In this document: one piece after another, positions 3,487-63,325 of the stretch
Numbering within the stretch: the first letter of the stretch is position 1
Layout of the letters: each line of letters starts with the position of its first letter
From: a virus
Length of the DNA stretch: 64,000 bases
Reading direction: 5' to 3' (one strand)
IMG/VR virus record: IMGVR_UViG_3300032288_005424
Position numbers and translations under genes: made by a program
The notes under the pieces: generated by a model
Databases searched by the model: none
What the model saw: the letters and a program-made list of their open reading frames with translations, nothing else
What the model was told of the DNA's origin: nothing

Positions 3487-4302
3487 TTAATTGACGTACT
3501 CTTTGAGAGATCTCTCAAGCCCGTCGGTGTTCTCAAGTTCTGACGATGATTCGTCATAGTAGTTTTTATAGCGTTCTTCTAAAAGAGCTGAGGCTTTTCC
3601 AAAGCCCAGTTGATCTAGTATTCGAATTGCGAGCCAATCCGCTTCTCTTTCTTGTCTTTCATCGTACTTAGCAAGACGATTCGATTCATGATGATTCAAT
3701 ACTGAGTGAGAAATTTCGTGAGCCTCAATCGCAAGAAGATGATCTTGTGTTAGATTCTGGTGTTCAACCTGGACTCCGTCTATGAATACTGTTTTTGAGT
3801 TTAGGTCAGCGAAGGCTGTTCCCAACCAGTCAAATATCTTGGCAACATTTCCGTAAAGTTCATCTTCTGGCCAGAGTACCAAAATTGTCCAACTTGGGTC
3901 AATCTCACTTTTCCAAACGGCACTAGGTTCTTGAGAAGTTTCATCTGAGCTCTCAGTTAAATTGTACTTCTTCATTTTTGAAGCCCGTCGACCTGTTAGG
4001 TCTCTCCAAAGTTCTCGAACGTCCGGTTGGGCCAAGGTATCGGCTTGTACCATTGAGTAGAACTGATTATCTGAATTTTGCAACATCGCAAAAAATTCAT
4101 CAAGAGTCGGTTTCTTCGGCAAGGCCTCAATCCTAGGTTTTAGTCTTCTGAACATTGGAAATAGCTCAGTTTCGTACTTGTCTCCAGTATGTGGGTTTCT
4201 TCCGAATTTACGATTAATTCCCAGATCACTAACTTTCTTTAGCGGCCTAGATTGAGCGGCATTTTCAAGTAACCAGTCATTAAATTTAAGTAAAGTCTTC
4301 AT
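3487..4302 (-). CDS. CTS-like N-terminus plus HExxH metallopeptidase-like protein
   Basis: N-terminus MKTLLKFNDWLLENA (family motif); HEISH zinc-binding motif (LAIEAHEISHSVLNHH). Confidence 0.5.
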   Translation of the reverse strand: MKTLLKFNDWLLENAAQSRPLKKVSDLGINRKFGRNPHTGDKYETELFPMFRRLKPRIEALPKKPTLDEFFAMLQNSDNQFYSMVQADTLAQPDVRELWRDLTGRRASKMKKYNLTESSDETSQEPSAVWKSEIDPSWTILVLWPEDELYGNVAKIFDWLGTAFADLNSKTVFIDGVQVEHQNLTQDHLLAIEAHEISHSVLNHHESNRLAKYDERQEREADWLAIRILDQLGFGKASALLEERYKNYYDESSSELENTDGLERSLKEYVN

Positions 4303-4352
4303 CTAGTTTATTTATTCGGGAGTCAGATAAATAACAAAAAAACAAAAAGATA

Positions 4353-4799
4353 ATGATCCATAAGTATCAACAATGGCTTGAAGAATCTGAAAAGGTTGAA
4401 GCGGGAGCAGATGTTCCATCAGAAACTCCTGAAACCTCAACTTCGGATTTGCCAACTGAAGAAACTCCGGCAGCAGACGCGCCAGTAGATGCAAACGCTG
4501 ACGCTCCTGAAATGACAGTCGATTCAGCTGAATCCGAAATCGAACAGTATCGTACGCTAGACACTACGCGCAGAGATGCAATCAAAGCTTTCAAAGCAAA
4601 ACAAGAGGAATTCTTGGAAATCCCAGATGAAACTCGTAAGAATCCAACTGAGGAAGCTGACAAAACTAAGGTTGAAACTCTAAAAACTGAATTGATTGAG
4701 CTCAATAAGACAATGAAAGACGCGATCAAAGCATGGGATTCTTTCAATGCAAAAGCGTTAGGAATTAGTGATGACGCTGATTTAGACGAAGAACCTTAA
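4353..4799 (+). CDS. acidic hypothetical protein, divergent CTS-like N-terminus
   Basis: MIHKYQQWLEESE start; highly acidic, Pro/Ala/Glu-rich. Confidence 0.5.
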   Translation: MIHKYQQWLEESEKVEAGADVPSETPETSTSDLPTEETPAADAPVDANADAPEMTVDSAESEIEQYRTLDTTRRDAIKAFKAKQEEFLEIPDETRKNPTEEADKTKVETLKTELIELNKTMKDAIKAWDSFNAKALGISDDADLDEEP

Positions 4800-4800
4800 T

Positions 4801-5082
4801 ATGGCAGAAAATCAAATCTCTGGATTCGCAGACACATTCTTATCTAAACTTAAAGAACAGTCATTCACAGTTCTTCTCATGGTAGGCGTGATTTGGTATC
4901 AAGGTAGAATGATGGAAGAGCGAGTAGCCTATTGGCAAAAGCTGTATGAGGACAGGGAAGCTTACATTCAACAAACAGCAAAGGAAGACAAACAGATTCT
5001 ATTAGACCGAATAAAGTATCTTCAGGACCAGAGAGACAAATACGTTGATGATGCAATCAACGAATTAAAAGAAACCAAGTAA
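4801..5082 (+). CDS. small membrane/coiled-coil protein
   Basis: One TM helix (FTVLLMVGVIWY) then a charged helical region; start overlaps the upstream stop (TAATATG). Confidence 0.45.
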   Translation: MAENQISGFADTFLSKLKEQSFTVLLMVGVIWYQGRMMEERVAYWQKLYEDREAYIQQTAKEDKQILLDRIKYLQDQRDKYVDDAINELKETK

Positions 5083-5088
5083 AATAGT

Positions 5089-6643: not shown

Positions 6644-7306
6644 CTAGTTAAGTTTGAACTTATAGCCTGTTAATTTTTCAACCTCTTCCTTTTTAACTGC
6701 CCATTTTTCAAGACCAATTGGTTTGGCTGGGGTATTATTAAATATGTAGGCTTCCCAAAGCCCGGTCTTTTTAACGAAGATCACCTTCCAACACTTGGTC
6801 GGAACTGAGGTTGTACCAATTTTTCTTTCGACTCCAACTGAACCGCACCATACCATTACCGAATCGTATTGAGCGGCAAGTTCGCGAGTTCGTACCTCTA
6901 GCTTTTTCCAGTCACCAGCATTTAGTGAATGATATTGTGGAGCCATATTTGAAAAGTAGAAGCACTCCCTTTGCCAGTCAGCATTGCACTGGTTGTCCGC
7001 AGCTGGGCACATGTGTCCCCTGTCCGTGCCTGATCCAACGTAGTCCTTTGCCAAATTCGTTTCAGCCGGCAATAGAGGATCCGGTGCAAACTCGTCCTTG
7101 CGTGGAACCTTTGAGTCCGGGCAAATAAGCCTAGCCTTTGTGTCCCACCATTCAACCTTTAGCGAGTAATGAAGTTCTGGGCTGTAATAGGCAACATAGC
7201 CTTGGTGTTGGAGCTTAACAGTCTTTTCGGTTTTGGGTGGAGCCACAAAGCTCGTGATGAACAGTAACAGGATCGTTGCTACTATTGAGAGTTTAAAAGT
7301 TTTCAT
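6644..7306 (-). CDS. secreted DNA/RNA non-specific endonuclease (Serratia NucA family)
   Basis: Signal peptide; DRGHMCPAADN...FYFSNMAPQ...N matches the Endonuclease_NS active-site DRGH motif. Confidence 0.7.
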   Translation of the reverse strand: MKTFKLSIVATILLLFITSFVAPPKTEKTVKLQHQGYVAYYSPELHYSLKVEWWDTKARLICPDSKVPRKDEFAPDPLLPAETNLAKDYVGSGTDRGHMCPAADNQCNADWQRECFYFSNMAPQYHSLNAGDWKKLEVRTRELAAQYDSVMVWCGSVGVERKIGTTSVPTKCWKVIFVKKTGLWEAYIFNNTPAKPIGLEKWAVKKEEVEKLTGYKFKLN

Positions 7307-7381: not shown

Positions 7382-7753
7382 ATGAAAAAATTAATCATCG
7401 CAATCATCGCAGCAGTAAGCTTCCAAGTTGCAAACGCTCAAGTTAACCCGATCGAACAAAATCGTCAAGCGATTGAATTTCTTAAGGATCGTTGTTTAAC
7501 TTTTAATAAAGGTCAAGTTCCGGTACGAGTTGATAACTTGACTAAGGTGACCGATTCTTTGGACATCAAGAACATCAACTACAGTCGTACCACTTACGTT
7601 TTCTACGGCAGTCAAATCAATGATGAAACTTGCGGAGGCGGATCTAGCGAAGCCGCTACTGGCAGAACAGCAGTACCTTTCATTAAGTACAGAATCTACA
7701 CTCAAGGCGGATTGACCTACTTGGAAGTGGTTGACGGTAACTCTTACTTTTAA
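7382..7753 (+). CDS. small secreted protein
   Basis: Signal peptide MKKLIIAIIAAVSFQVANAQ; class-2 TATATT box at 7346-7351. Confidence 0.5.
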   Translation: MKKLIIAIIAAVSFQVANAQVNPIEQNRQAIEFLKDRCLTFNKGQVPVRVDNLTKVTDSLDIKNINYSRTTYVFYGSQINDETCGGGSSEAATGRTAVPFIKYRIYTQGGLTYLEVVDGNSYF

Positions 7754-7819: not shown

Positions 7820-9046
7820 TTATCTTCCAACTTGGCCTTCGCCTTGCTTTGCACCGCCGGTACCAGCTCCGCCTGGGCTAGAACTGCCGCTCGTCCAGTT
7901 ATGAACCAGCTGAACGCTATCGAACCAGGTTGAAACGCCGGATTCAGTTGCTTTAGCGATCAATCCGTTCTTGATGATGTCGCCGTATCCAGCAAATACA
8001 TCGGTCGATTCAGCGAATTCTGCCGGTGGTTTAACCGGTGCGATCGCTGTCGCTATTTGGGTGATCGCCTCGATTAGGCGTTTTGTGCCTTCTGGTTTTA
8101 ATTTATACTTCTTATTACGTTCATCGTATTGAACCAGAGCATTCATATCAGCCTTTGTGATTTTCGAAAGAGCTGAGCTTGTGTCCGGCATCTGATCGTT
8201 AACCAGCATTCTGTTACCTTTTACGAAACCTGCAATCTTCGTAGCTGCGGTGGTTGATGCAGCCGCTGAGTCCTTACCTGCAATCCAATCGTAATAACCT
8301 TTGAACACGCCATCCGTTGTTGCAATGTGGTCCTTTAGGCCAAGCAACTCAAGAGCAGCAATTGAAACGGTTGAGATCAGACCGTTTGAGATTGAACCTA
8401 GCGTACCTGGTTTTGCCCAATAGTAAGTGAAACCGCGTGCATCCGCTTCAGCAACAGCTTTACCCAACGTGAATTTAACCGCATAGTTCTTACACATACC
8501 AATGCCGAACTTGAACCTGGTCGTCATGTCAGCAAGGGCATTACCGAATCTGATCAGTGCAAGCATTCCGTTATTGGATGCCTTGATCGTGATTGGGCCG
8601 GTTATTTCTGACTTCTTGATTAGGATCGTGCCGGTTTCATAGATCTTTTTGCCGTTGATCTCTAGCATATCATCACCGGGCTTTGCAACCTTTTCGGTTG
8701 AGTCCAGGTTGATTTTGATCTTACCTGCTGCAGGTTGAACGTTTGGATCTGCCGAGTTTTGATTGCTTTGGCCTCCGAACTTGCTACCGTCAGTGTCGAG
8801 GTACTTTAGTTGGCCCAAATAGGAAAGGGTTATCGTGTAGATAGTATCCTTTTTAAATCCAAATTTGGTTGCATCTCCGAGGTTGCTGGCACTGCACGAG
8901 GCAGAGATGAAAGCAACTCCGTCTGCGGCTTGCTGGCCTTGTGCGGCTGGCTGTTGTTCAACAGCCTCGTTAAGCCAGTTCGAATAGGTCTTGATTATTC
9001 TTGACTTCATTGTAAACTTTTTTTTATTTTTTACGTGTTTGTCCAT
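7820..9046 (-). CDS. large hypothetical protein with CTS-like N-terminus
   Basis: 408-aa ORF; internal start MKSRIIKTYSNWLNEA (would begin at 9010) matches the family motif; Gly-rich C-terminus. Confidence 0.5.
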   Translation of the reverse strand: MDKHVKNKKKFTMKSRIIKTYSNWLNEAVEQQPAAQGQQAADGVAFISASCSASNLGDATKFGFKKDTIYTITLSYLGQLKYLDTDGSKFGGQSNQNSADPNVQPAAGKIKINLDSTEKVAKPGDDMLEINGKKIYETGTILIKKSEITGPITIKASNNGMLALIRFGNALADMTTRFKFGIGMCKNYAVKFTLGKAVAEADARGFTYYWAKPGTLGSISNGLISTVSIAALELLGLKDHIATTDGVFKGYYDWIAGKDSAAASTTAATKIAGFVKGNRMLVNDQMPDTSSALSKITKADMNALVQYDERNKKYKLKPEGTKRLIEAITQIATAIAPVKPPAEFAESTDVFAGYGDIIKNGLIAKATESGVSTWFDSVQLVHNWTSGSSSPGGAGTGGAKQGEGQVGR

Positions 9047-9151
9047 TTAGGATTTGGTCAATCAGGTAGAGTTATTTATTTTAGTCAAGGTCGACCAATT
9101 CGATTTGGGCTGTGGTACAATAACCTTATCTTAAACAAAATTCATTATAAC

Positions 9152-9510: not shown

Positions 9511-9795
9511 TTATTTCAAGAAGGATAGGGTCAGCAGCGAGTTCAATAGGGTTCTGTCCGCATCGCTTGCGATCGAGTACTTAGAGTCAACCGAACACGC
9601 AACTCCCATGTCGAATGGGCCGCCTTTGGTAATGGACTTGCTGTACTCCTTGAATTGGGCCTTTGCTGCATCGCTTAAGTAGCCCCAATTTTTACAGGCC
9701 TTTTTTAAGAGCTCAGCATCCGCTGGATTTGGAGCAGCCACTGCATCAGCTTCGTGCAGTTCTTTCCATTCATTAAATTTGCCGATAGTTGTCAT
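9511..9795 (-). CDS. hypothetical protein (CTS-like variant N-terminus)
   Basis: MTTIGKFNEWKELHEA. Confidence 0.45.
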   Translation of the reverse strand: MTTIGKFNEWKELHEADAVAAPNPADAELLKKACKNWGYLSDAAKAQFKEYSKSITKGGPFDMGVACSVDSKYSIASDADRTLLNSLLTLSFLK

Positions 9796-9821
9796 TGTTG
9801 TAAACTATTTTTTGTTATTTA

Positions 9822-10214
9822 TTATATCTGGATTTCCGGATTTGGAGTTTCAAATCGGCGCTTGCGCATGATGGTCTTGAAGACCAGATCCTTTTCTGAA
9901 CCGTCCGGGTCCGCAACGACCTTGATCGGCACGTTGAGCCAGGTGGCCAGCTGCTTTAGCACTGCTTCGCTTTCGTCGGGCAGTTTCGCCAGTTTATGAC
10001 CGGCCTTGTCGAATGCTTTGAGTAGCAGGGTCTCAAGCTCATCATAGCTTACCTGGGCCCCATTACGGGCATCATTGACCCGGTCCTTGAAGTGAGAGGT
10101 GAAGACGACATCAAGTCCAATCTCATTGAAGTGATCGTCGGCGAATCGCTCAAGGTCCCTAAAGTCCTGAGCATCAAGCTCCTCATTGAGCCATTGGGTA
10201 AATGTCTTTATCAT
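9822..10214 (-). CDS. hypothetical protein with CTS-like N-terminus (GC-richer)
   Basis: MIKTFTQWLNEE; GC content well above the genome average. Confidence 0.5.
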   Translation of the reverse strand: MIKTFTQWLNEELDAQDFRDLERFADDHFNEIGLDVVFTSHFKDRVNDARNGAQVSYDELETLLLKAFDKAGHKLAKLPDESEAVLKQLATWLNVPIKVVADPDGSEKDLVFKTIMRKRRFETPNPEIQI

Positions 10215-10226: not shown

Positions 10227-10565
10227 TTAAACCATGCCCCATGCAGCAACCATCTCAACCGTTGCATGGATGTTGGGCTCTTCACCATGAGAGTATTCCA
10301 TCAGTTGCTCGGCAGCGGCCTGCATCTCGTCCGAGTCATAGAGGTATTTTTGGTCGAACTCCTCGGACAGGGCTCTGAGACGTTGCTCAAGCTTTGTGAT
10401 CAGGTCCTGGACCTCCGGGTCTTGGCTGAAGTGTTCGCTGATCGCATCGAGGATCTCGTCACGGTCGGTCAGTTCAACCTGGTCGGTAAAGCCCATTGAG
10501 GCAAGTTCATCACTTTCCTCGGATTCCTTAATGTACTGGCCAATGCCCTTCACTAGTTGTTTCAT
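10227..10565 (-). CDS. acidic protein; higher-GC paralog of ORF 28764..29096
   Basis: MKQLVKGIGQYIKESEE; ELASMGFTDQVEL / DPEVQDLITKLEQRLRALSEEF align with ELRSMGFSDYSAP / DPEVNAAIDTLKSRFRELFAKH of the AT-rich paralog. Confidence 0.5.
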   Translation of the reverse strand: MKQLVKGIGQYIKESEESDELASMGFTDQVELTDRDEILDAISEHFSQDPEVQDLITKLEQRLRALSEEFDQKYLYDSDEMQAAAEQLMEYSHGEEPNIHATVEMVAAWGMV

Positions 10566-10658
10566 TTGTTATCGTGGTTATTTCAGGGTTTATTTATCAT
10601 CGCGCGCCCGGCCCCGCCTAGGGGGTTTTGTAGGCGGTGCAGGCACGCCCGTTTTTTG

Positions 10659-10672
10659 GGTACATTAAACTT
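10659..10672 (+). promoter_or_regulatory. class-2 -10-like box (TGgTACATT) ending 6 nt before the ATG
   Basis: TTTTTTGGGTACATTAAACTT then ATG; the same architecture recurs at 13709 and 29146. Confidence 0.4.
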
Positions 10673-10846
10673 ATGAAAGGACAGTTTATAATTATAGACC
10701 TCAGAACCATGGACTTCATGAAGAACGAGGAGGGCCGCATGAACTTCTATGATACGCTAGACGATGCTCTGCTTGTATGTGGAATGTATGAATTTGAAAA
10801 TGCATGGGTTGTCCAACTCGTCCATAACCATCAAGAAAGAGATTAG
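10673..10846 (+). CDS. small hypothetical protein
   Basis: 58-aa ORF starting at MKGQFIIIDL, directly after the TACATTAAAC box. Confidence 0.4.
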   Translation: MKGQFIIIDLRTMDFMKNEEGRMNFYDTLDDALLVCGMYEFENAWVVQLVHNHQERD

Positions 10847-10863
10847 AGAGATAAACCTAGAAG

Positions 10864-11283
10864 ATGACATTAGCAGAGCTACACGAACTTTGGCGGATGG
10901 GAATCATTGGAGACCAGGAACTCATCCGTATCCAGATAGACCGCATCATGGGCAAGAGCCAACACGCGGGGACCTGGACCGGCCATGGGCTTGAACTTGT
11001 CGGACTCCGAATAACCGATTCAACCGGCTTAGACTCCGGACTCCGGGTTGAAATGGAAGCCAAGGGACCGACCGCAACCCTGAAGGCCGGGGCATTTGGG
11101 CTCAAGAACAATCGGGTCCGGTGCGATTGTGTGGTTCCAACCTGGATGATGGAGAGTCCGGATACCCTAAAGAGCCTGCTTGAAAACCGGCTCATTGTTC
11201 TTTTTGGGCACTTTACCTCCGGGGGAGAATCTGGCCCCGGTAGAGGGACCGGCAAATACGACCCAATTACTGGCTACGTGTAG
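10864..11283 (+). CDS. hypothetical protein (GC-rich island)
   Basis: 139-aa ORF at ~60% GC; its 3' end overlaps the first copy of a ~40-bp direct repeat. Confidence 0.4.
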   Translation: MTLAELHELWRMGIIGDQELIRIQIDRIMGKSQHAGTWTGHGLELVGLRITDSTGLDSGLRVEMEAKGPTATLKAGAFGLKNNRVRCDCVVPTWMMESPDTLKSLLENRLIVLFGHFTSGGESGPGRGTGKYDPITGYV

Positions 11284-11808
11284 CCCAAGCCCGGGGGAGA
11301 ATCTCTAACCGGTAGAGAGCCGGCCCAAAATTTCAATTTTTAGGTCAATTGCGGAGACCGGGAAACCCTAGGACCCGTAGATACCGAAATTGGTCCGGGA
11401 AGCCTCCTCCTGGCCATGGGGATTTCGGAAAAAAGTAAAGTGCTGCGGCCGTCCTCCTGGAGTACTTTTATTACCTCGGCAAGGTCACTCCCGGGGCACC
11501 GCCAGGCAGCCTGGGGGCCACTACCGGGGTCACCTGGGGGCTACTACCGGAGTCAGCCAGGCACTGCCCTGGGGCTGCTCCTGGGGTCACTGCCCGGGTC
11601 ACAGTTCCCGGTTACCCAGACCGGTCCGGGGCAAGGTCCGCCGGGCCGAAACTTGCAAGCAGCCGGGCAGGCGGAACCTCGCGAGACCCGGCAGGTCTGT
11701 ACAGACCTGTCAGCAGACCTGTCAGACGTTGCGGTTGGCTGAACAGACGTTGCGGTTTGCGGGGTCAGATACCGCGGTCTAGCTCGGTCTCGAGAACCTG
11801 GAACCAGG
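11284..11808. repeat. GC-rich non-coding region with tandem imperfect direct repeats
   Basis: Direct repeat CCGGGGGAGAATCT..CCGGTAGAG.GCCGGC at 11221 and 11291; CTACCGGGGTCACCTGGGGG / CTACCGGAGTCAGCCAGG / CTCCTGGGGTCACTGCCCGGGTCAC; CAGACCTGTCAG x2; CAGACGTTGCGGTT x2. Confidence 0.5.
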
Positions 11809-12156
11809 TTGGAGTATAAGAAGTTATTACTTAAATCCAGAAAAAAGATGTTATTGGAAAGTTTAGTTGCAGAATTCTTCAGGATTCTCGAGCGGTCTGG
11901 TCGGGACTGGCACCGGATCCGTTGGGCAATCCGCGGGCTGGAATCCGAAATCCGGCGTAGTGCTCACGGCCAACCCTGGTCCGAGGAGCTTGAAGAATAC
12001 CTTATCTTCCGGATTGGGGAGGCGCTGACCATTGCCCAAAGGGCGGCTGTTGCAAGGGAGGAGTTTGAATGGGCGCATGAAATTGCGATCAGGCTCCGGG
12101 AACTTGGCCACGATTTAGAAAAAACCTTAATAGACAACAATGCAGAAACAGATTGA
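11809..12156 (+). CDS. hypothetical protein
   Basis: 115-aa ORF with intermediate GC. Confidence 0.4.
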   Translation: MEYKKLLLKSRKKMLLESLVAEFFRILERSGRDWHRIRWAIRGLESEIRRSAHGQPWSEELEEYLIFRIGEALTIAQRAAVAREEFEWAHEIAIRLRELGHDLEKTLIDNNAETD

Positions 12157-12157
12157 C

Positions 12158-12319
12158 ATGATAGACCTCATTCTCGAGCGGGCGCTGGACCGCCATGGTC
12201 TAATAGACTGGACTTGGATAGACCACGAACTCGCAAAGAAGGGAGCAACGGTTGAGAGACGGGTCTTACACAAGCGGGTCAAGGCTCTGCTCGCGACCAG
12301 GGCCAAACGGCGTTGGTAG
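12158..12319 (+). CDS. small basic hypothetical protein
   Basis: 53-aa ORF (MIDLILERALDRHGL...) whose ATG overlaps the upstream stop (TGACATG). Confidence 0.3.
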   Translation: MIDLILERALDRHGLIDWTWIDHELAKKGATVERRVLHKRVKALLATRAKRRW

Positions 12320-12360
12320 AATATAATAACCTATCTCTAAAAAAATAAAAGAAAAAGAAT

Positions 12361-12585
12361 ATGCAAAAACTAACAACCCTACTCGCGGCCCTGCTTCTTG
12401 CGGCTGGCCTTGCCTTTCTTGCCTCGGTAATAATTGCCTTTCCGGTCAAGTGGCTCTGGAACTGGTTGATTCCGGAAATTTTTACCGGCGTCAAACCGAT
12501 CTCGGCTCTACAGGCCTGGGGTCTCGTGTTCCTGCTTAACCTCATGATTCCGAACCGTAATCGGACCGAGAAGAAATCGGATTAA
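12361..12585 (+). CDS. small two-TM membrane protein
   Basis: TATAAT box at 12322-12327; two hydrophobic helices. Confidence 0.5.
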   Translation: MQKLTTLLAALLLAAGLAFLASVIIAFPVKWLWNWLIPEIFTGVKPISALQAWGLVFLLNLMIPNRNRTEKKSD

Positions 12586-12669
12586 CCCTAAAAAATTTAG
12601 GAAAAAAGACCCGGGATTTTTATTTCTCGGGTTTTTTTGTTATATTTGTATCATAAATCCAGTAAAGAT

Positions 12670-12831
12670 ATGTACACGTTAGATTGCAACTATTACCAAA
12701 AGGAATTCCGCACGGTCGCCGAACTCTTAACCGACGTTCTCGAGAGCGGTACCGATCCGAACTACGAAATTCTGCGCAACGGCCAACCGACCGGCGAAAC
12801 CGCATGGGACCTCATCGGCCCCGTTGCCTAG
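12670..12831 (+). CDS. small hypothetical protein
   Basis: Preceded by a hairpin plus T-run (12608-12640) and a TTATATTTG -7 box; start MYTLDCNYYQ. Confidence 0.4.
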   Translation: MYTLDCNYYQKEFRTVAELLTDVLESGTDPNYEILRNGQPTGETAWDLIGPVA

Positions 12832-12846
12832 CAAATTTTTCCTTAG

Positions 12847-12940
12847 CGATCCCAGCCCAAAAAGGTTGGGATTTTTTTTTTAAAAAAAGTGAAAATAAAT
12901 TTTTTTGTTTGAGAAATTTTGGTTATATTTGCTTTATCAA
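12847..12940 (+). promoter_or_regulatory. terminator-promoter cassette A (host sigma-A type)
   Basis: ATCCCAgcccaaaaaggTTGGGAT hairpin plus T-run, then AAAAAGTGAAAATAAATTTTTTTGTTTGAGAAATTTTGGTTATATTTGCTTTATCA (TTTG then TAnnTTTG). Confidence 0.6.
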
Positions 12941-12953
12941 ACTTCAACAAACC

Positions 12954-13427
12954 ATGCTTAATCACACCACATTTCCAGCCGCTCTCCTTGCCGGCAACTC
13001 CCGTCTCACCATCACCAATCCAGCGACCGGTCAATGGATCAAGGTCAAGATGAAGCGTCGCAAGGACCGCGAAACCGGCAAGCCGGGTAATTGCTACTTC
13101 CTGTCGCTTGCGCTCTTGCAGGACGGGGACCTTGGCCACCGCTACGTCGGAGCCTACTTCGCGGATTCGGGCCGATTCAAGCCGGGTCGCGATGCCTCGG
13201 CCAGAGAAGTTCAGATCGCCGAATTCCTGATCCGTGCCGTTCGTAATCCGCAACTGTTGCAGGCTGCAGAGATCGAGCACTGCGGTAAATGTTTTGCCTG
13301 CGGCCGGACCCTAACCGTGCCGGAAAGTATCCGCTCGGGCTGGGGACCTGAATGTTTTACCCGCCAGTTCGGAGACCTCAGCCTCCGACCGCTTGCCGAG
13401 TTCGGATTACTTGACCCAATCGGGTAA
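12954..13427 (+). CDS. hypothetical protein (GC-rich)
   Basis: 157 aa starting MLNHTTFPAALLAG, 14 nt after the -7 box; CxxC pair (HCGKCFACG). Confidence 0.5.
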   Translation: MLNHTTFPAALLAGNSRLTITNPATGQWIKVKMKRRKDRETGKPGNCYFLSLALLQDGDLGHRYVGAYFADSGRFKPGRDASAREVQIAEFLIRAVRNPQLLQAAEIEHCGKCFACGRTLTVPESIRSGWGPECFTRQFGDLSLRPLAEFGLLDPIG

Positions 13428-13708
13428 TCCGGCCCGGCCGGGGCCGGACTCCCTAGTAAAGAGTACAATAATTTCATTAATTAAAACCATAAAATCATGA
13501 AGAAGTTAATTCAAAGATTCCTATTCGGAACCCCAATCCAGGGCGAGACGGTTGACCTAAGCGTTGGCAAGCCCAGAATTCAGAGCACTTGCGAACCTGC
13601 GGAGAAGGCAAGCTTCAATGAGGTATTCCAAAACGTGCACCGCGAATTACAGGCCGCAGCCGCAGAACGACTTGGGGTCAGGGGATAATCCAATCCCTTC
13701 GAGGATTG

Positions 13709-13722
13709 GGTATATTAAACCT
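13709..13722 (+). promoter_or_regulatory. class-2 -10-like box (GGGTATATTAAAC) ending 6 nt before the ATG
   Basis: Same architecture as 10659 and 29146; preceded by hairpin CCAATCCcttcgaGGATTGG. Confidence 0.4.
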
Positions 13723-22589: not shown

Positions 22590-22618
22590 GCCTTAAACAA
22601 ACTATCTATAACCGGAAA

Positions 22619-24647: not shown

Positions 24648-24650
24648 TAT

Positions 24651-24772: not shown

Positions 24773-24791
24773 CTAATACAAATAGATCAAC

Positions 24792-53061: not shown

Positions 53062-54695
53062 TGAAAAGGATACTTGTAACATTAACTGTATTATGCATGG
53101 CTTTGTCAGCAATGGCTCAAAGCTTTACCTACAGCTATGTGAATCCCTGTAATGGAAACATTGAAAAGATAGTGATTCCTTCCGGATCAAATTCGGTTGC
53201 CGTGACTTACTATAATCAAATACGAGTTTTCAGCGAAGCTGATTTCTCAAATGGAACGTTTGACGCATGGGCAAGTTCAGTGTTTAATTCATACAGCCAA
53301 GTTTCTCCATGTGCAGGTATCGGAACAACTACGGTCGTTTCACTGACTCAAAACACAGCAATGACGATGATCTCAATAATGGGATCGTTAACCACAATTA
53401 GCGATGCGTTAGGCAGTGTTAATTCGTTGGGAGGATTAACTGCGTCCGTTACTAGCGGGAGCGGTGGGTCAGATGGATCTAAAGGAAGTAACAACTCTAA
53501 AAAGACTAAATCAAATGACGCAGGTGGACAAGGAACATCGCAATCAACAGGTTCCTCTAATTCTTCCGGTGGAAGTTCTCAATCTACTGGTTCTACTTCG
53601 ACAAGCGGGCAGGGCTCAAGCGGATCAAGTTCAACTACTGGATCAACTGGAAGCTCAACTCAATCTTCTACAGGAACACCACAATCTCAGAGTGGTTCAA
53701 CTCAAGGAGGAAGTTCGTCGTCTCAGCCGACTCTAAGCGGAGGATCGACTAGCGGTTCTAGTTCAAGCGGTTCAAATTCAGGAAGCTCGACTACTGGTTC
53801 CGGATCTTCAAGTTCAACCAGCGGATCGAGCTCAGGAGGATCAACAAATGGCTCAAGCTCAGGATCCTCAAGTTCAACTGACGGATCAACCAGCGGATCG
53901 GGCTCAGGAGGATCAAGCACTGGCTCAGGATCTTCTAGTGGAGGTTCAACTAAAACAGAAGCAGCGGCTGAAGACAAAAAAACCGATGCACTAAGCGGTT
54001 CAAATAATGCAGTTAGATCAACACCCACTAACGGAACTGGAAATTCAAAGAATGGATTAAGGCCGATGGTTGTCGCAGGTAGCGATTTAGCCGGATTTAA
54101 TTTTAAAGACGGGGATGTTGCGTTCGGTGGAAAGATTAACGGCAACTACACGTCAGTTAGATACGATCAACGCCGATCTCATGGATTGTTATTTGACTAC
54201 ACAACCGCGATCAAAGGACCTAACATTACCGGTTTTTACGCATGGATGAAACCGAAAAGAATCACATTACTTTCAAATACATTGACTATCGGATTTGAAG
54301 GCAAGGGCTCAATTTATAATAGCGTTGCATTCGGACAGATGAGAGATATTGGAAAATCTAAAAGACTAAAGCTTGTTTACATGGCATCCGCTTCCGTTGG
54401 CGAAGTGTATGACGAAGCTTTTTTAGGAACCGCTCTAATTGCTGGAGGAATGTACGACTGGAGAGTCAGCAAAAAGCTAGATCTTAAACTTATGGCTCTT
54501 GGAGTTTACGCTCCATACGTGAGCTACTACAACGATATTTTACTACAGTCTCCTTATGTTATTTTGCCAAGCATTGGAACTAATATTAAGGTGACAAAGA
54601 ATTTTAGATTCAACATAAACTGGGGAGGAGCGTGGGCCATAAATCAAAATGTGTTGAACTACACGATAACAATTGGAACAAGACTTGTGCTTTAA
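53061..54695 (+). CDS. secreted protein with a long S/G/T-rich low-complexity linker and a C-terminal beta-rich domain
   Basis: Signal peptide MKRILVTLTVLCMALSAMAQ; ~180 aa of SGS/TGS repeats; C-terminal ~200 aa with alternating hydrophobic strands. Confidence 0.5.
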   Translation: MKRILVTLTVLCMALSAMAQSFTYSYVNPCNGNIEKIVIPSGSNSVAVTYYNQIRVFSEADFSNGTFDAWASSVFNSYSQVSPCAGIGTTTVVSLTQNTAMTMISIMGSLTTISDALGSVNSLGGLTASVTSGSGGSDGSKGSNNSKKTKSNDAGGQGTSQSTGSSNSSGGSSQSTGSTSTSGQGSSGSSSTTGSTGSSTQSSTGTPQSQSGSTQGGSSSSQPTLSGGSTSGSSSSGSNSGSSTTGSGSSSSTSGSSSGGSTNGSSSGSSSSTDGSTSGSGSGGSSTGSGSSSGGSTKTEAAAEDKKTDALSGSNNAVRSTPTNGTGNSKNGLRPMVVAGSDLAGFNFKDGDVAFGGKINGNYTSVRYDQRRSHGLLFDYTTAIKGPNITGFYAWMKPKRITLLSNTLTIGFEGKGSIYNSVAFGQMRDIGKSKRLKLVYMASASVGEVYDEAFLGTALIAGGMYDWRVSKKLDLKLMALGVYAPYVSYYNDILLQSPYVILPSIGTNIKVTKNFRFNINWGGAWAINQNVLNYTITIGTRLVL

Positions 54696-54697
54696 AT

Positions 54698-56998
54698 ATG
54701 AAAAATATTATTCTAATAATACTTGCATTCGCTCTACTATTCCCTAAATTAGCGGAGGCTCAAGCGACCTCAGTTAATTTAGGGACTTCGAGTACCTCAG
54801 CCCTGTCCGCTACTTATAATACTTGGACAAAGGTTGACCCTAATATTACAATAACTGCAAATGGAACCATCTCTGGATTCAGGGTTCAAATTTCGCAAAC
54901 CTATACAAGCGGAGATCAATTACGATCTACTGGGACTCTACCTTCTGGAGTTAGCTCTTCTTTTAATACGACCACCGGTATACTTGCATTTAGCGGAACA
55001 GCATCCGCTTCTGACTGGCAAACGGTATTGAGAGGAGTCGAGTTTAGATCGACCACTACTACGTGCTATGCACTACAGAGGAGAGTAACGTTCGTAGCTG
55101 GAGCAGTTTTCTATAATCCTCTTACTGAACATTTTTATGAATATGTATCTGGCTCAATAACCTTTACAAACTCAGTAACCTCTGCTCAAGCTCGATCTTA
55201 TTTTGGTAGAGCAGGATATTTAGCAACAATGTCATCAGAGGCTGAAAATAATTTTGTTTGGAGACTAATGGCCAGCGATTGCTGGTTCGGTGCATCTGAC
55301 GAAGTTGGCTTGGTAAATTCAGCAAAGGGAACCACTGCATTCGCTAGTCAAGCTGCGGTTGAGGGTAAATGGCACTGGATCTCAGGTCCCGAAAAAGGGA
55401 TCAATTTTTCAAATGGTAATGCAGGAGCTGGCCCAACTACCGTATCTGGACAATACGCTAAATGGGCGCCTGGCGAACCCAACAACTCAGGTGGCGAGCA
55501 TTACGGTCAATTCTATTCAGCCAATCTAGGCCAGTGGAATGACTTACCTAATACGAATCTCGGAGGATACCTTTGCGAGTATGGGGACATGCCCGGAGAT
55601 ATTACGAGCAGCGTTACCATACTGACTAGGGATATTGAAATTAGTAATTCTTCAAGTGGCTATATCACTGGTGGAAACATCAATGTGTGTTCTGGCTCAA
55701 ACAGTACAACTCTAACTCTAACCAATTTAACAGGGTCAGTTGTACGTTGGGAATCTTCGCTTGATAATTTCTTTACGGCTGGAACAACGATTTCAAGTAC
55801 CTCATCGACCTTAACTATTACTAACTTAACTAGGACCACTTACTATAGAGCAATCGTAAATTCAACGAGTCCAGTCTCGTGCACAGGATTAGCGACGTCA
55901 AGCGTATTTCTATCAGTCAAACCGACCAGAGCCGGCACAGTATTCGCTGCGAACAATTCAATATGTTCAGGCGGCCTAGCTGAATTGACCCTGTCCGGAC
56001 AACAGGGTAACGTGAATAAGTGGCAACGTTCGATCAACAACATAAATTGGACGGATATTACAAACACTAGCACGAGCTTGACTGAAACCATTAATACAGC
56101 TGGAACTTATTACTATCGAGTTGAGGTGCAGACTCCAAGCTGCGGAAGTGCAGTATTTTCAGATTCAAAAATAATTACTGTGACTTCTGGAACTCCACCG
56201 ACCGGTGGATCAGTTTCGTCGGCAGTTCATCCAACCTCGACAAACTCAGGAACGTTGACGTTAAGCGGCCATACTGGAACAATTGTTAAATGGCAAAGAT
56301 CAACAAATTCCGGCGTAACATGGACAGACATCGCAAATACTGGAACGACTAACTCATACTCAAATCAGACTGACGGTACCATGTTCAGAGCTCAATTGAC
56401 TAGCGGTACCTGCGGAAACGCATTCTCTTCTGCTGGCACAATCACAGTTGCTCCATTCACTCACTCCGGTTCTGTGTACAACGCTGAGAATACTGGAATT
56501 CAAAACGTCGTTGTCAATCTACTTCATAAATTAAAAACTGATTTAGTTTACAGTGCATTGAGCTCTTCAACCACCGCTGCAAACGGCAGTTACTCGTTCT
56601 CCACATCATTGAGCGTTAACAAATACGATTTCATAATCAGCATTAACTCAGCAGCTGTTGATTCGCCGACGTCGGCTGACGCTGAGTCTTTTAATCAAAA
56701 GGTACTTTACCAATCGTTCGTCTCGAAAGACTATTATCGAATGGACGCTAATTCAAATGGAAAGTTATCAATCACTGATGTATTCTTAGTGTATGCTAAA
56801 AAGAGTGGATTAATTTCCACGTGGCCTTACTCTACCCCAAATTACAGGATATTTACAGCATCGCAATGGTCGGCGATAAACTCAAGCGCGAGTAATTTAG
56901 TTGCAACATATCCTGGGACTCAGGCGCTAACCACACCAACCTTGACTTCCGGTGGAACTACTAATTTCTATATCGTTAAAACCGGCTTAATAAAATAA
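54698..56998 (+). CDS. large secreted protein with a C-type lectin domain and repeated beta-rich (Ig-like) modules
   Basis: Signal peptide MKNIILIILAFALLFPKLAEAQ; WHWISGPEKG...YAKWAPGEPNNSGGEHYGQFYSANLGQWNDLPN...YLCEY matches the CTLD WIGL/EPN/WND motifs. Confidence 0.55.
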   Translation: MKNIILIILAFALLFPKLAEAQATSVNLGTSSTSALSATYNTWTKVDPNITITANGTISGFRVQISQTYTSGDQLRSTGTLPSGVSSSFNTTTGILAFSGTASASDWQTVLRGVEFRSTTTTCYALQRRVTFVAGAVFYNPLTEHFYEYVSGSITFTNSVTSAQARSYFGRAGYLATMSSEAENNFVWRLMASDCWFGASDEVGLVNSAKGTTAFASQAAVEGKWHWISGPEKGINFSNGNAGAGPTTVSGQYAKWAPGEPNNSGGEHYGQFYSANLGQWNDLPNTNLGGYLCEYGDMPGDITSSVTILTRDIEISNSSSGYITGGNINVCSGSNSTTLTLTNLTGSVVRWESSLDNFFTAGTTISSTSSTLTITNLTRTTYYRAIVNSTSPVSCTGLATSSVFLSVKPTRAGTVFAANNSICSGGLAELTLSGQQGNVNKWQRSINNINWTDITNTSTSLTETINTAGTYYYRVEVQTPSCGSAVFSDSKIITVTSGTPPTGGSVSSAVHPTSTNSGTLTLSGHTGTIVKWQRSTNSGVTWTDIANTGTTNSYSNQTDGTMFRAQLTSGTCGNAFSSAGTITVAPFTHSGSVYNAENTGIQNVVVNLLHKLKTDLVYSALSSSTTAANGSYSFSTSLSVNKYDFIISINSAAVDSPTSADAESFNQKVLYQSFVSKDYYRMDANSNGKLSITDVFLVYAKKSGLISTWPYSTPNYRIFTASQWSAINSSASNLVATYPGTQALTTPTLTSGGTTNFYIVKTGLIK

Positions 56999-57010
56999 AA
57001 ACAATAACAC

Positions 57011-57493
57011 ATGAAACAGCTTATTTTCTTTTTAGTTCTCATACTTGGAGTGCAGCTTCAAGCATTCAGTCAAAACTGCGTCAAGGTCGATACAGTCTAC
57101 ACAACCGCTAAGATAAAGGAATTAAAGAATCGCAGGATCACATTCGGGATTCGCCAGATCGCAGAAGAAGAACTTTCCAATAAGTACCAAATCTGCCAGG
57201 AAGGTGAGCCCATAGGGATCGAGGTTGCCTATGTTGGAACTCCAAAAAAGAGCTTCACGTTTGGCGGAGTAGGCGGAGCTGTTCAAACTACTGAGGTTCT
57301 TGTTAAGCTTCACATGGCCGGTCTTGTGTATGACGGTAATGGAGCAGAAGAAACTTCCGCACAAATGATGTTCATTCAATTGAATGACGATCAGATTCCA
57401 TTCGACAAGACGACTCTATCTACTGCTCTAAAGAGAGCGATCGCCGATGCAGTAAAAAAGATGACCACGGTTAAACCAATTGAGGGAAATTGA
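57011..57493 (+). CDS. secreted hypothetical protein
   Basis: Signal peptide MKQLIFFLVLILGVQLQAFSQ. Confidence 0.45.
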   Translation: MKQLIFFLVLILGVQLQAFSQNCVKVDTVYTTAKIKELKNRRITFGIRQIAEEELSNKYQICQEGEPIGIEVAYVGTPKKSFTFGGVGGAVQTTEVLVKLHMAGLVYDGNGAEETSAQMMFIQLNDDQIPFDKTTLSTALKRAIADAVKKMTTVKPIEGN

Positions 57494-59978: not shown

Positions 59979-60063
59979 GGAGAGGTGGCAGAGCGGTTGA
60001 ACGCGGCGGTCTTGAAAACCGTTTTAGGTAACACTAACGGGGGTTCGAATCCCTCCCTCTCCG
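59979..60063 (+). tRNA. tRNA-Ser (anticodon UGA), type II with long variable arm
   Basis: GGAGAGG acceptor, D-arm GCAGAGCGGTTGAACGC, anticodon loop CTTGAAA, long variable arm, T-arm GGGGGTTCGAATCCCTC, 3' CCTCTCC-G. Confidence 0.8.
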
Positions 60064-60079
60064 CAAAATAACAATACGA

Positions 60080-60357: not shown

Positions 60358-61047
60358 ATGATTAAAAACACTACGCCCTATTTGGGAAAGATCAGACTTA
60401 AGTTTGAAAAGTTTCCTCACTATTCAGGAAAAGATAAGCTGAATAAAATTCACCTAAACCTTGGATTCACCAAGTTGGTCAGTCGCATAACTCCTTTCAG
60501 AGATGAGAGCGGTTGGGTTGTAAATCCTGAATGCATTGAGTTGATTAAAAAGAATACTGGCCTTAAGGTTGAGACTCACAAGTTTGGACCAAATGACGAG
60601 TACACATTACCGAATTCGTGCATGAATCTTGACGGGCAGTACGTTGGCTCAATCGAAGAAGGTTGGTGGTACTACAATAACGGATTGCGAGCAACTAAGG
60701 GCTCTCATCCGCACACAGCTTGGAGCAAAGAGGCCAAGCAATGGATAGGTTACTCACATAGAGCTGCATGCGCGTTCGGTAAGGGAGACAAACTTTTCGA
60801 TGCAAATTGGGTTCCAAACGATGACGAACTTCTTGCTCTTGAAAAGCACTACGTAAAGCATTTAGGAGAATTTCAAAAGGAATATTCTGAGTGGGTACAA
60901 AGCGGATCTGATCACAAGGAAGAGGAATTCACTCTAAATAAATGGGCAGTAGGCCACATTCCTTTCAAGTTACGTGGAAGTAAAACGATTCATTCTTACG
61001 AAGATGCTTACAAAGCAGCCGTTAACTTTGCTAAATACATAGGTTAA
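60358..61047 (+). CDS. hypothetical protein
   Basis: 229-aa ORF. Confidence 0.5.
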   Translation: MIKNTTPYLGKIRLKFEKFPHYSGKDKLNKIHLNLGFTKLVSRITPFRDESGWVVNPECIELIKKNTGLKVETHKFGPNDEYTLPNSCMNLDGQYVGSIEEGWWYYNNGLRATKGSHPHTAWSKEAKQWIGYSHRAACAFGKGDKLFDANWVPNDDELLALEKHYVKHLGEFQKEYSEWVQSGSDHKEEEFTLNKWAVGHIPFKLRGSKTIHSYEDAYKAAVNFAKYIG

Positions 61048-61385: not shown

Positions 61386-61681
61386 TTAAAGGTTCTGAAC
61401 AAAATCGAAAACAAAGGGACGTTGAACTTGCGCGACTCGTTCAAGAGTTCACTGAGAAGCTAGAACATGATCCTTACCAGCCTGGTGTAGTACACCCTGA
61501 AGTCTATCCTGATGATTTACAGGAGGTAATTGAGGATCTTTTCTTCGTTAGAGGATTTTCCGAGGCAACCATCAAGGTCAGTAAGAATCTGGACGGAATG
61601 TCAATTCAGGTTCAAGTTTTAAACCGGGGCGGAATAAATAATAAAAATTCCTCAACACTGGATGAAACTAAAGAGATTTAA
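61382..61681 (+). CDS. small hypothetical protein
   Basis: Start MIKGSEQNRK overlapping the upstream stop (ATGA). Confidence 0.4.
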   Translation: MIKGSEQNRKQRDVELARLVQEFTEKLEHDPYQPGVVHPEVYPDDLQEVIEDLFFVRGFSEATIKVSKNLDGMSIQVQVLNRGGINNKNSSTLDETKEI

Positions 61682-62234
61682 CGAATTCATAGCGATAAAT
61701 GAATCAATTCACGAATTTACAGTAGACGAGCTACTTGTCTTGATAGATGGTGAAATTTATCAACCTTACGAGTTTGACGTAGACCTGGCCTGGGAGCATG
61801 AACCTGCTGACCCGGAAGTTGGCATACCTAACTCATACTATTATGTTGAAAATTATGAACTATATCAAGTAACCAAAGTTTCTAAATTAGTAGATCCGGA
61901 AATCAAGAATGAACTTATGGATTTACTGTCTCCTCCAAGCGATGAAATCTCAACAGAGCTTGCTGGTTTCGGATTCAGAGAAGAGGCTAGAGAAGACCGT
62001 ATCACTGACATAGCTTTCTCCGGCGATTGGCAACAAAACTGGAAAGACTTGGCCGGTGATGAGCTAAAGGCTTTTTCGAAACAGTTTATTCAACTTTACG
62101 AGACTAACCAGCTTAAGACGATCGTCGGTAACCTTACGGATGCTCTACAAACAGAAGTAAATAATGTTGAATCTGATTACGAGGATCATTCTGACGACGG
62201 TTATGATTACGACGATTATCACGATAGATATTAA
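61662..62234 (+). CDS. CTS-like N-terminus acidic protein
   Basis: MKLKRFNEFIAINES. Confidence 0.5.
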   Translation: MKLKRFNEFIAINESIHEFTVDELLVLIDGEIYQPYEFDVDLAWEHEPADPEVGIPNSYYYVENYELYQVTKVSKLVDPEIKNELMDLLSPPSDEISTELAGFGFREEAREDRITDIAFSGDWQQNWKDLAGDELKAFSKQFIQLYETNQLKTIVGNLTDALQTEVNNVESDYEDHSDDGYDYDDYHDRY

Positions 62235-62273
62235 ATCTGCCCAAATAAATAACCTAAAATTACACGAATCTAC

Positions 62274-62837
62274 ATGAAACTTTTAAAGTTCACAGAATTT
62301 GTTAACGAATCACAAGTTAACGAAGCACAACTAAAGGACAAAGCAATAATTGCTAAGTTGGAAAGAATTCACGAAATCAAAGAAAGATTGAAAGAGCTAA
62401 CTACTGAAACTAAAGCTATTGAAGGAGAGCTAAAGGAGTTCGATGCATCAGTTAAACCCATCTTTGATGCAATGAAAGTTCTTAACGATAAATTGGCAAC
62501 TACTGAGAAGTACGTAATGAAAATTACAAGATACGGTGGAGAAGGAACTGCTGTTGCTTACGGAAAGGCCGTTGAGCAAGCTCTTACTCAAGTTGACGAA
62601 GCTGCTCAAGCAATCATCAATGAATGTGTTAGACAGCATACTAGCATTACTCAAGTTAAACACTCTTTTGAAATTAACAAATTGGACGAGGGCAAATTAA
62701 CTGACAAGGCTAAAGCTGTAATCGCTAAAATTTCAGATAAGATTAAAGCGATAGTTACTAAATTCAAGAGTTTCTTTGACTCTAAGATCTCTAAGATCGA
62801 TGCAGCTAACGAAAAGCTTGCAGCTATCAAAAAATAA
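62274..62837 (+). CDS. CTS-like N-terminus coiled-coil protein
   Basis: MKLLKFTEFVNESQVNEA. Confidence 0.5.
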   Translation: MKLLKFTEFVNESQVNEAQLKDKAIIAKLERIHEIKERLKELTTETKAIEGELKEFDASVKPIFDAMKVLNDKLATTEKYVMKITRYGGEGTAVAYGKAVEQALTQVDEAAQAIINECVRQHTSITQVKHSFEINKLDEGKLTDKAKAVIAKISDKIKAIVTKFKSFFDSKISKIDAANEKLAAIKK

Positions 62838-62845
62838 TTGAACCT

Positions 62846-63325
62846 ATGCTCAAGCCACTAGTTCAGAGCTTCAATGAGTACACTATCAACGAGGCCAAAT
62901 CAAATCATCCAGCTAAATATAAAGCGCCTGAGGGCAGTTCCCGAGACTCTAAGTTAGACAAGGCACAGGCTCTACTGAAGGCCGGTAAAAAGGAGGAGGC
63001 TTATAAGTTGCGTGATGAAATGGAAAAGGCCGAAAGATCTAAACTGGATTGGAAGAACACTCCGCGTAAGGATTCACAAGTTGATGAAGCTAAAAAGGCT
63101 GGTAGAAACTTAAGCAAAGAAACTCTTGCAAAGATCAGAGCGGTTGCAACCAAAAAAGGTTACTCATTCGCCGATCTCAAAAGAGAATACGTCAAGGGCC
63201 TAGGTGCTTTCTACTCTTCCGGTTCAAGACCTGGAATGACGGCTCATCAATGGGCAATGGCAAGAGTAAATTCAGCTTCTCCAAGTAAATCTTGGGCAAA
63301 CGTAAAAAAGGTTGGAAAAAAATAA
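62846..63325 (+). CDS. CTS-like N-terminus basic protein
   Basis: MLKPLVQSFNEYTINEA. Confidence 0.5.
   Translation: MLKPLVQSFNEYTINEAKSNHPAKYKAPEGSSRDSKLDKAQALLKAGKKEEAYKLRDEMEKAERSKLDWKNTPRKDSQVDEAKKAGRNLSKETLAKIRAVATKKGYSFADLKREYVKGLGAFYSSGSRPGMTAHQWAMARVNSASPSKSWANVKKVGKK

Follow-up and report, generated by a model that had tools for sequence, protein, structure and literature searches.

The shared N-terminus and its carriers

The viral record IMGVR_UViG_3300032288_005424 is considered here as a stretch of 64,000 nucleotides (nt), the whole of which is called the window and provides the numbering for all positions. It contains around 113 open reading frames (ORFs), has a GC content of about 41%, and encodes five tRNA genes together with the subunits of a T4-type topoisomerase II. 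The subject of this analysis is a short peptide, the tag, with the consensus M-K-x-[IL]-K-x-[FY]-x-[EQ]-[FWY]-[ILVM]-N-E-[ASE], which forms the N-terminus of 23 ORFs in the window, or about 20% of its genes. The tag is 10–16 residues long, and its forms include MKSFKQFMNEA, on the protein encoded at 30191, and MKHLKLFESWVNEA. All 18 N-termini quoted in a preliminary description of this DNA are found at the ORFs to which they had been assigned; the shared N-terminus is real, although the count of at least 24 carriers given there becomes 23 here. Several of the carrier statistics below use 22 peptides. Carrier 28127 has a weak score in the hidden Markov model (HMM) of the tag. Two of the 23, carriers 28127 and 33972, begin at TTG, and these starts were found because the motif extends upstream of the first ATG.

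Searches of GenBank phages with the window DNA gave no close match. The large subunit of the topoisomerase shares 56–57% identity with its counterparts in LR745206 and LR756502, uncultured ‘huge phages’ of 635–642 kb, of which LR745206 (635 kb, 29% GC as against 41% in the window) was analysed whole. Near-identical fragments of the window are present in IMG/VR, and its genes lie at differing offsets on four contigs of 270.1–271.3 kb (3300034117_002447, 3300042430_002694, 3300034060_001466 and 3300033992_001502), which suggests that these contigs are complete genomes, circularly permuted and about 271 kb long, of the window's clade.

The carriers are listed below and are referred to by the position at which each coding sequence begins; a slash marks the predicted cut, and lengths are in amino acids (aa).

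1–624, minus strand: 5' part of a carrier whose ORF runs off the window (full ORF of 656 aa in L167); MINSFIDMVNE/S; 9.3 bits
3487–4302, minus strand: carrier, 271 aa; MKTLLKFNDWLLE/NA; zinc-peptidase motif HEISH at residue 195
4353–4799, plus strand: acidic carrier, 148 aa; MIHKYQQWLEE/SE; weak Phage_scaffold match
7820–9010, minus strand: carrier, 396 aa; MKSRIIKTYSNWLNE/A; alternative start at an upstream ATG at 9046
9511–9795, minus strand: carrier, 94 aa; MTTIGKFNEWKELHE/A
9822–10214, minus strand: carrier, 130 aa; MIKTFTQWLNE/E; body matches phrog_23027 (function unknown)
10227–10565, minus strand: acidic carrier, 112 aa; MKQLVKGIGQYIKE/SEE
24986–25477, plus strand: acidic carrier, 163 aa; MKYIKLFEEL, with an L-F-E site only; paralogue of 25499
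25499–26017, plus strand: acidic carrier, 172 aa; MKYLKIFEEF
26044–26334, plus strand: carrier, 96 aa; MKKLIKGFQQFVNE/A
28127–28753, plus strand: probable carrier with a TTG start; (M)KYVKLYENFFED; weak, 5.0 bits
28764–29096, plus strand: acidic carrier, 110 aa; MKNLKAFNQFIHE/E
29980–30204, plus strand: Pro-rich carrier, 74 aa; MKHIKLFEQFITE/F; orthologue in LR745206
30191–31642, plus strand: carrier, 483 aa; MKSFKQFMNE/ADI; tag of 10 residues, the length found in T4 IPIII
31642–32466, plus strand: carrier, 274 aa; MKHLKLFESWVNE/A; phage lysozyme domain at the C-terminus
33090–33962, plus strand: carrier, 290 aa; MPKYIKLFESFIGE/A; homologues with only 30% body identity keep the tag
33972–34838, plus strand: carrier with a TTG start, 288 aa; (M)KYIKLFEEH
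34857–36329, plus strand: carrier, 490 aa; MKYLRIFESWMTNE/D; orthologue in LR745206
38919–40076, plus strand: carrier, 385 aa; MKLFKFTEFINE/G; nucleotidyltransferase-like, phrog_36119 (weak match)
44677–45228, plus strand: carrier with an atypical tail, 183 aa; MIKSFTQFIAGLFE/K; 2H phosphoesterase with two HxT motifs and a weak Acb1 match
61662–62234, plus strand: acidic carrier, 190 aa; MKLKRFNEFIAINE/S
62274–62837, plus strand: carrier, 187 aa; MKLLKFTEFVNE/S
62846–63325, plus strand: carrier, 159 aa; MLKPLVQSFNEYTINE/A; DUF5824

Paralogy of the carriers was rejected, as their bodies are unrelated beyond the tag, except for 24986 and 25499 (E 3e-23) and, weakly, 10565 and 24986. The region from 24986 to 36329, reported earlier as twelve consecutive tagged genes, actually holds 11 carriers among 16 ORFs, with breaks at 26446, 26952, 27930 and the sigma-like ORFs at 29272 and 32492. 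Pfam and PHROGs offer no function for most carriers. Among the functions that had been proposed, the lysozyme (PF00959, 2.7e-11) and, through its HEISH motif, the HExxH peptidase are confirmed; the 2H phosphoesterase retains its paired HxT motifs, with weak Acb1/2H matches, and the nucleotidyltransferase is reduced to a weak match. The ‘many acidic proteins’ of the preliminary description correspond to an isoelectric point below 5 in 9 of 22 carriers. In some relatives (L024:8293–10014 and L034:8329–10014) the 34857-type carrier continues at its C-terminus into the Pro-rich 29980-type carrier, a fusion from which it is likely that the two act together.

Position and composition of the tag

Within the window the motif keeps closely to N-termini. 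A loose regular expression matches 17 N-termini and 2 internal positions in 19,416 residues, a 44-fold difference in rate, and all 7 matches of a strict expression across the six reading frames are N-terminal. This test of specificity is circular inside the window, and the independent tests are the scans of T4 and LR745206 described below. The helical hydrophobic moment of the tag is high (0.457 versus 0.298, p = 1e-5), and the peptide is amphipathic and neutral to acidic, without a hydrophobic run. A Sec, Tat, lipoprotein or membrane-anchor signal was rejected as an explanation, since the tags are amphipathic, contain 2–3 acidic residues and lack a hydrophobic h-region of 7–15 residues. An [ILVM]-x-E sequence follows the second aromatic residue in 18 of the 23 carriers, with [LI]-[FY]-E at positions 6–8 in the other five, and folded, conserved sequence begins directly after the 10–16 residues of the tag.

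Resemblance to the T4 capsid-targeting sequence

The preliminary description had compared the tag to the capsid-targeting sequence (CTS) that internal proteins of T4 carry, a comparison that is upheld both by a scan of T4 DNA and by the residues involved. When an HMM trained only on the 22 tag peptides of the window was run over 43,131 six-frame residues (32 kb) of T4 DNA, first and second place went to the N-termini of IPII and IPIII, with 12.5 and 11.7 bits, followed by a next match at 6.3. The sequence MKTYQEFIAEA, earlier attributed to the T4 internal proteins at large, is the start of IPII and IPIII, whereas IPI starts MKTFKEFTS...ITEA. The best-conserved columns of the tag core are two aromatics (21/22 and 19/22), an aliphatic residue (17/22) and a Glu (14/22). 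The aromatic columns are column 7, which is F or Y, and column 10, which is F, W or Y, and in the HMM alignment they fall on Y4 and F7 of IPII and IPIII; the four together align with Y4, F7, I8 and E10 of IPIII. According to the passage of a review that deals with Mullaney and Black 1996 (PMC9026906), targeting of IPIII is determined mainly by residues 4 and 7 and its processing by residues 8 and 10, and it is with these residues that the conserved core of the tag coincides.

Three features of a CTS can therefore be recognised: a short shared N-terminal peptide of about 10–20 residues on otherwise unrelated proteins (the 23 carriers and those of LR745206), aromatics at the positions of IPIII Tyr4 and Phe7, and a predicted cleavage motif of the [L/I]-x-E type at the end of the tag. 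The CTS of IPI, IPII and IPIII likewise occupies the extreme N-terminus of otherwise unrelated proteins over 10–19 residues, and displays the same pattern of M-K-x-aromatic-x-x-aromatic-aliphatic-x-E followed by a small residue. Unlike the T4 sequence, the tag has an additional N-terminal [IL]-K turn, such that most tags are 13–16 residues long, and its P2 residue is usually Asn.

A generic amphipathic helix might resemble the CTS for no deeper reason, in which case the peptide would sort or dock its protein to some other destination or partner, for example a different structure assembled late, a compartment built by the phage, a chaperone or an adaptor of the secretion type, or would act as a degron that shortens the protein's lifetime. 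This is rather unlikely, because the T4 match is specific, with IPII and IPIII the top two of 43,131 positions, and because the conserved positions are those to which the cited passage assigns targeting and cleavage in T4. A neutral-to-acidic peptide without a hydrophobic core also speaks against a role as a signal.

Tagged proteins in other phages

A search of related phages with an HMM of the tags, as the preliminary description had proposed, proved productive. In LR745206 the window HMM gave 71 matches of at least 6 bits, 60 of them lying at residues 1–8, 8 coinciding with an in-frame Met and the other 3 being truly internal. After this filter on position there are at least 67 carriers, falling into 64 unrelated body clusters and making up at least 7% of the genes; the count is a lower bound, with many more sequences just under the 6-bit threshold. 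One of these carriers is a T4-type RNA ligase 1. Twelve window genes have homologues in LR745206, and five of the twelve are carriers with orthologues that are tagged too. The LR745206 orthologue of the 44677 protein has the N-terminus MKLKKYKQFIKES. The tag was not seen in the 50 kb around the capsid gene of either LR756504 or Prevotella phage Lak-A1, and the claim made here covers the window clade and the LR745206 clade only.

Selection on the peptide

The tag could conceivably be the by-product of a nucleic acid element, a shared 5' coding sequence or an AT-rich unstructured start that aids translation in a host without Shine-Dalgarno pairing. Residues encoded by AT-rich codons (K, N, I, F, Y and E) do abound in the tag, and the upstream leaders are A-rich. 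Moreover, related freshwater phages encode the ribosomal protein bS21, which has been proposed to bias late translation (PMC9723584). Nevertheless, where K, F, E or N is conserved in the tag, synonymous codons occur in genome-wide proportions (for K, 22 AAG and 21 AAA; for F, 17 TTC and 16 TTT), which indicates selection on the peptide and not on an RNA element. The extra synonymous conservation that a conserved 5' RNA element would leave, and that had been put forward at the outset as grounds for refutation, is absent; an RNA element was accordingly rejected and the motif is one of the peptide. Between the window, at 41% GC, and a relative of 29% GC the protein-level motif is likewise preserved, and composition fails to explain the position-specific aromatic, aliphatic and Glu columns. 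An origin at the level of the mRNA is thus very improbable.

The tag is a modular add-on. Cyanophage S-CRM01 and Maribacter phage Molly encode homologues of the 38919 protein in which the tag is missing and the sequence opens with the conserved domain. Among co-linear homologues the tag is kept in 38 of 42, including all 8 with a body identity below 40%. The family of the 30191 protein has 213 homologues, and nearly all of the 120 listed keep the tag, starting MK[STN]F.QF..E-ADI, the exceptions among these 120 being gene calls that start at an inner Met. In the AF2 model of the 30191 protein (pLDDT 84 and pTM 0.78 overall) residues 1–10 have a pLDDT below 50 and are unstructured, and the well-folded part begins directly after them. 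The syntenic loci of relatives contain seven tagged body families that are not in the window, one of them a GxGxxG flavoprotein-like ORF, and their absence from the window indicates that the cargo set turns over between relatives.

A promoter-like element upstream of the carriers

The octamer ATAAATAA occurs at 24 sites in the window, where 4.7 are expected, and is nearly always oriented as the downstream gene. It precedes 13 of 22 carriers and 10 of 91 other genes (p = 6e-6), and most of the remaining carriers lie downstream within the same apparent transcription units. The copies associated with carriers are as follows.

647–654, minus strand: ATAAATAA upstream of carrier 624
4308–4315, minus strand: ATAAATAA upstream of carrier 4302
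4327–4334, plus strand: ATAAATAA upstream of carrier 4353
9072–9079, minus strand: ATAAATAA upstream of carrier 9010
9815–9822, minus strand: ATAAATAA upstream of carrier 9795
10590–10597, minus strand: ATAAATAA upstream of carriers 10565 and 10214
24974–24981, plus strand: ATAAATAA upstream of carriers 24986 and 25499
26014–26021, plus strand: ATAAATAA upstream of carrier 26044
29947–29954, plus strand: ATAAATAA upstream of carriers 29980, 30191 and 31642
33059–33066, plus strand: ATAAATAA upstream of carriers 33090, 33972 and 34857
38906–38913, plus strand: ATAAATAA upstream of carrier 38919
61634–61641, plus strand: ATAAATAA upstream of carrier 61662
62245–62252, plus strand: ATAAATAA upstream of carriers 62274 and 62846

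Two further carriers lie about 5 kb upstream of the window, behind another ATAAATAA, and the element is also found upstream of an endolysin-like gene and, past the window, of a Laminin_G_3 gene. It resembles the T4 late promoter, TATAAATA, and is best regarded as a putative late promoter. A different, analogous element, TAATATATA, stands before 32 of the 67 carriers of LR745206 (p = 1e-10), and the two elements are alike in their spacing, which has two modes of 12–15 or about 28–34 nt. In some AT-rich relatives (L176:3690–3800 and six to seven others) ATAAATAA itself is found 12 nt before the ATG of the capsid protein, inside an A-rich leader and downstream of a conserved ATATATAG element. Two sigma-70-like ORFs within the main carrier cluster, at 29272–29877 and 32492–33037, are candidates for the factors that read ATAAATAA; one has Sigma70_r2 and r4_2 domains and the other a weak r4_2 match only.

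An ATATATA-type element related to TAATATATA, although it does not match that 9-mer exactly in every case, lies in front of the genes for portal, protease-scaffold and capsid protein across LR745206-like loci. Tagged genes and head genes there have this promoter-like element in common, but the head genes do not have the tag peptide. The tag is therefore not general to the class of genes that shares the element, and this too speaks against the peptide as a by-product of an mRNA feature.

An upstream element common to the carriers, their clustering and the turnover of cargo, with its seven body families foreign to the window, would all be in keeping with a promoter-plus-leader cassette that spread by duplication or recombination, as has been proposed for the T-even internal-protein loci, and left a functionless peptide behind. 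Against such a relic, the DNA of the tag is not conserved beyond what the peptide requires, and the peptide persists across clades and in orthologues whose bodies have diverged to 30% identity, a persistence that demands purifying selection on the peptide itself. The relic explanation is accordingly held to be highly unlikely.

Head-assembly genes of the relatives

Of the portal and prohead protease for which a search had been recommended in the preliminary description, a T4-type portal and a gp21-like protease are encoded by the relative LR745206, and neither is found in the window or about 26 kb of its flanks. LR745206 has a portal gene (Portal_T4, 2.7e-57) and a capsid gene (Gp23, 1.8e-26) and, between them, a gene for a 707-aa protein (198546–200669, equivalent to L012:2546–4669). 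The N-domain of this protein aligns to T4 gp21 over 148 columns (hhalign 81.6%, E 1e-5), and the gp21 motifs GELNHP and VSSRG are present in the alignment. As in T4, then, the relatives of the window have a T4-type portal, a gp23-type capsid protein and a gp21-like protease.

The remainder of the 707-aa protein is made up of around 11 perfect tandem repeats of 14 residues, or two heptads, with the sequence NIAYSEY[ILV]AENLDK (NIAYSEYIAENLDK), and this fusion of protease to repeat-bearing scaffold is found at 79 of 80 related head loci. A position-specific scoring matrix of the tag core from the window ranks the scaffold repeats 29th to 97th of 188,975 positions. Every repeat contains a predicted I-A-E cleavage site, as in T4 ‘FIAE/A’. 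In 103 relatives the propeptide of the capsid protein ends ‘...EYAE[FY]H[SQ]INE-NAY’, which was aligned by eye with the T4 gp23 cleavage site ‘FLTE/AEIGG’. That both the scaffold repeats and the final residues of the capsid propeptide contain similar motifs is a further argument against a tag addressed to some destination other than the capsid. The N-terminus of the protease-scaffold protein, MKPVLIVEN, resembles the LIE-9 site of T4 gp21.

A probable capsid-targeting and cleavage tag

Taken together, the shared N-terminus is probably a greatly expanded T4-type capsid-targeting and cleavage tag, acting as both cargo tag and propeptide. The tag would fold as a short amphipathic helix whose two aromatics, three positions apart, would anchor the protein to the scaffolding core while the prohead is being assembled, perhaps by imitating the scaffold's own repeat unit. 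Once the shell has closed, the gp21-like prohead serine protease would cut after the Glu of [ILVM]-x-E or, in some carriers, of [LI]-[FY]-E, and the mature protein would be freed inside the head to exit with the DNA at infection. The lineage would thus have attached the tag to dozens of unrelated proteins, with a predicted cargo that comprises a lysozyme, a zinc peptidase, a 2H phosphoesterase, a nucleotidyltransferase-like protein and many small acidic or basic proteins, as well as an RNA ligase in the relative. Docking, cleavage, packaging and injection are inferred, as is a resemblance of the head genes of the window clade to those of its relatives.

Several observations weigh against this proposal. 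The commonest form of the tag in LR745206 is shorter, MK[YH][IL]KxFNE, and has Phe rather than Ile or Leu at P3. Five carriers in the window lack the canonical second site, after the second aromatic. The ending F-N-E, which is not a T4-type site, is better suited to the sorting tag for another destination outlined above, and the great number and variety of tagged proteins likewise fit general cellular sorting better than capsid cargo. To our knowledge, the number of tagged proteins is far above that of any known packaged set, and it is not obvious that all could be packaged; nor do we know of RNA ligase or 2H phosphoesterase as virion proteins in T4. In AT-rich genomes the ATAAATAA octamer need not be a promoter. 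With respect to the protease of LR745206, its match to Pfam Peptidase_S77 is sub-threshold (E 0.005), and a sequence-profile search of the PDB with the protease domain did not find gp21.

Searches for head genes in the clade of the window itself also bear on the matter. A tblastn search of the window with T4 head proteins found nothing, and neither the window nor some 26 kb of flanking DNA contains a prohead protease, portal or capsid gene; walks of 5–10 kb past both ends likewise revealed no head genes. When IMG/VR was scanned with two capsid-protein queries, the best 80 matches were all to AT-rich, LR745206-like contigs. A protein-database search with the capsid protein returned some 2,000 matches, none tied to the contigs of about 271 kb, and two DNA patterns joining ATAAATAA to capsid-protein motifs matched AT-rich relatives only. 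These searches did not find the head module of the ~271-kb clade, which counts as a further point against the proposal. On balance, the capsid-packaging interpretation of the preliminary description is partly supported. Its reading of the cargo as a counter-defence toolkit, for which the basis is a few weak domain matches, may be offered as a weak suggestion.

Comparison with other packaging systems

The system proposed here would differ from that of T4 in scale, with 23 carriers found over 64 kb and no fewer than 67 over the 635 kb of the relative, as against a handful in T4, and in the nature of its cargo, which includes enzymes, whereas that of T4 consists mainly of small basic DNA-binding proteins. 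Furthermore, the scaffold of the relatives is fused to the protease and made of tag-like repeats of 14 residues.

In phiKZ-like giant phages many head-internal proteins are cut after Glu by a T4-related prohead protease, and a large mass of ejected protein is a hallmark of giant phages (PMC5694885). The propeptides of phiKZ, 201phi2-1 and SPN3US are mostly longer than 100 residues and have no single short motif in common (PMC5694885). The window, in contrast, has one short consensus tag of 10–16 residues, with an aliphatic P3 as in T4, and not the long propeptides, differing from protein to protein, of the phiKZ-like inner body.

HK97-like phages with protease-scaffold fusions or delta domains provide another parallel, in that the relatives join protease and scaffold in a single polypeptide and make their capsid protein with an N-terminal propeptide. 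The protease of the relatives is, however, gp21-like (S77) and not of the HK97 type, and the scaffold is a series of regular 14-residue repeats, each with a predicted cleavage site. The cargo-loading peptides of encapsulins are short linear peptides that direct unrelated enzymes into an HK97-fold shell. They differ from the tag as proposed here in that they mostly occupy the C-terminus, attach to the shell protein instead of a scaffold and stay on the cargo, and no encapsulin-type operon is present here. Full-text literature searches retrieved the T4 CTS and the long phiKZ-like propeptides, and no shared short tag in huge or jumbo phages.

Other features of the window

A second class of N-terminus, separate from the tag, consists of classic signal peptides, which are found on unusually many ORFs of the window (6644–7306, 7382–7753, 40095–40553, 46815–47564, 49455–51380 and 52345–57493). 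Weak or precomputed matches point to a histone-deacetylase-family enzyme at 1481–2527, an NlpC/P60 peptidase at 2678–3118, a secreted Endonuclease_NS at 6644–7306 and Tad6, an anti-Thoeris family name, at 60358–61047.

Two GC-rich islands, at 10600–14000 and 22600–24900, have a GC content of 0.49–0.535, compared with about 0.40 elsewhere. They contain only short, odd, Arg-rich ORFs, have no match in Rfam or to phage DNA, and are bordered by GC-rich hairpin-like sequence adjoining ATAAATAA elements. Of the tRNA genes, that for tRNA-Ser lies at 59979–60064, and those for Phe, Lys, Met and Trp form a cluster at the end of the window (63585–63989), with TATAAATAA upstream at 63358. Directly beyond the window end are RNaseH-like and Ro60/TROVE-vWA genes and two Laminin_G_3 genes.

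Significance for huge phages

It is about evenly balanced whether this lineage loads tens of proteins by means of a scaffold-mimicking tag, such that the virion delivers a pre-made set of enzymes and inhibitors and the cargo turns over quickly. Mimicry of the scaffold repeat is the suggested mechanism by which the tag would be recognised, and it is one that can be tested in T4-like systems. If the proposal is correct, it would show tag-based packaging, already engineered in T4 as a means of delivering foreign proteins, to have undergone a large expansion in nature. The cargo would then be readable from sequence, and a simple HMM would list the proteins injected by a huge uncultured phage. Such a system would also bear on the role of the extra genes in jumbo and huge phages and on the means by which they survive the initial minutes of an infection.

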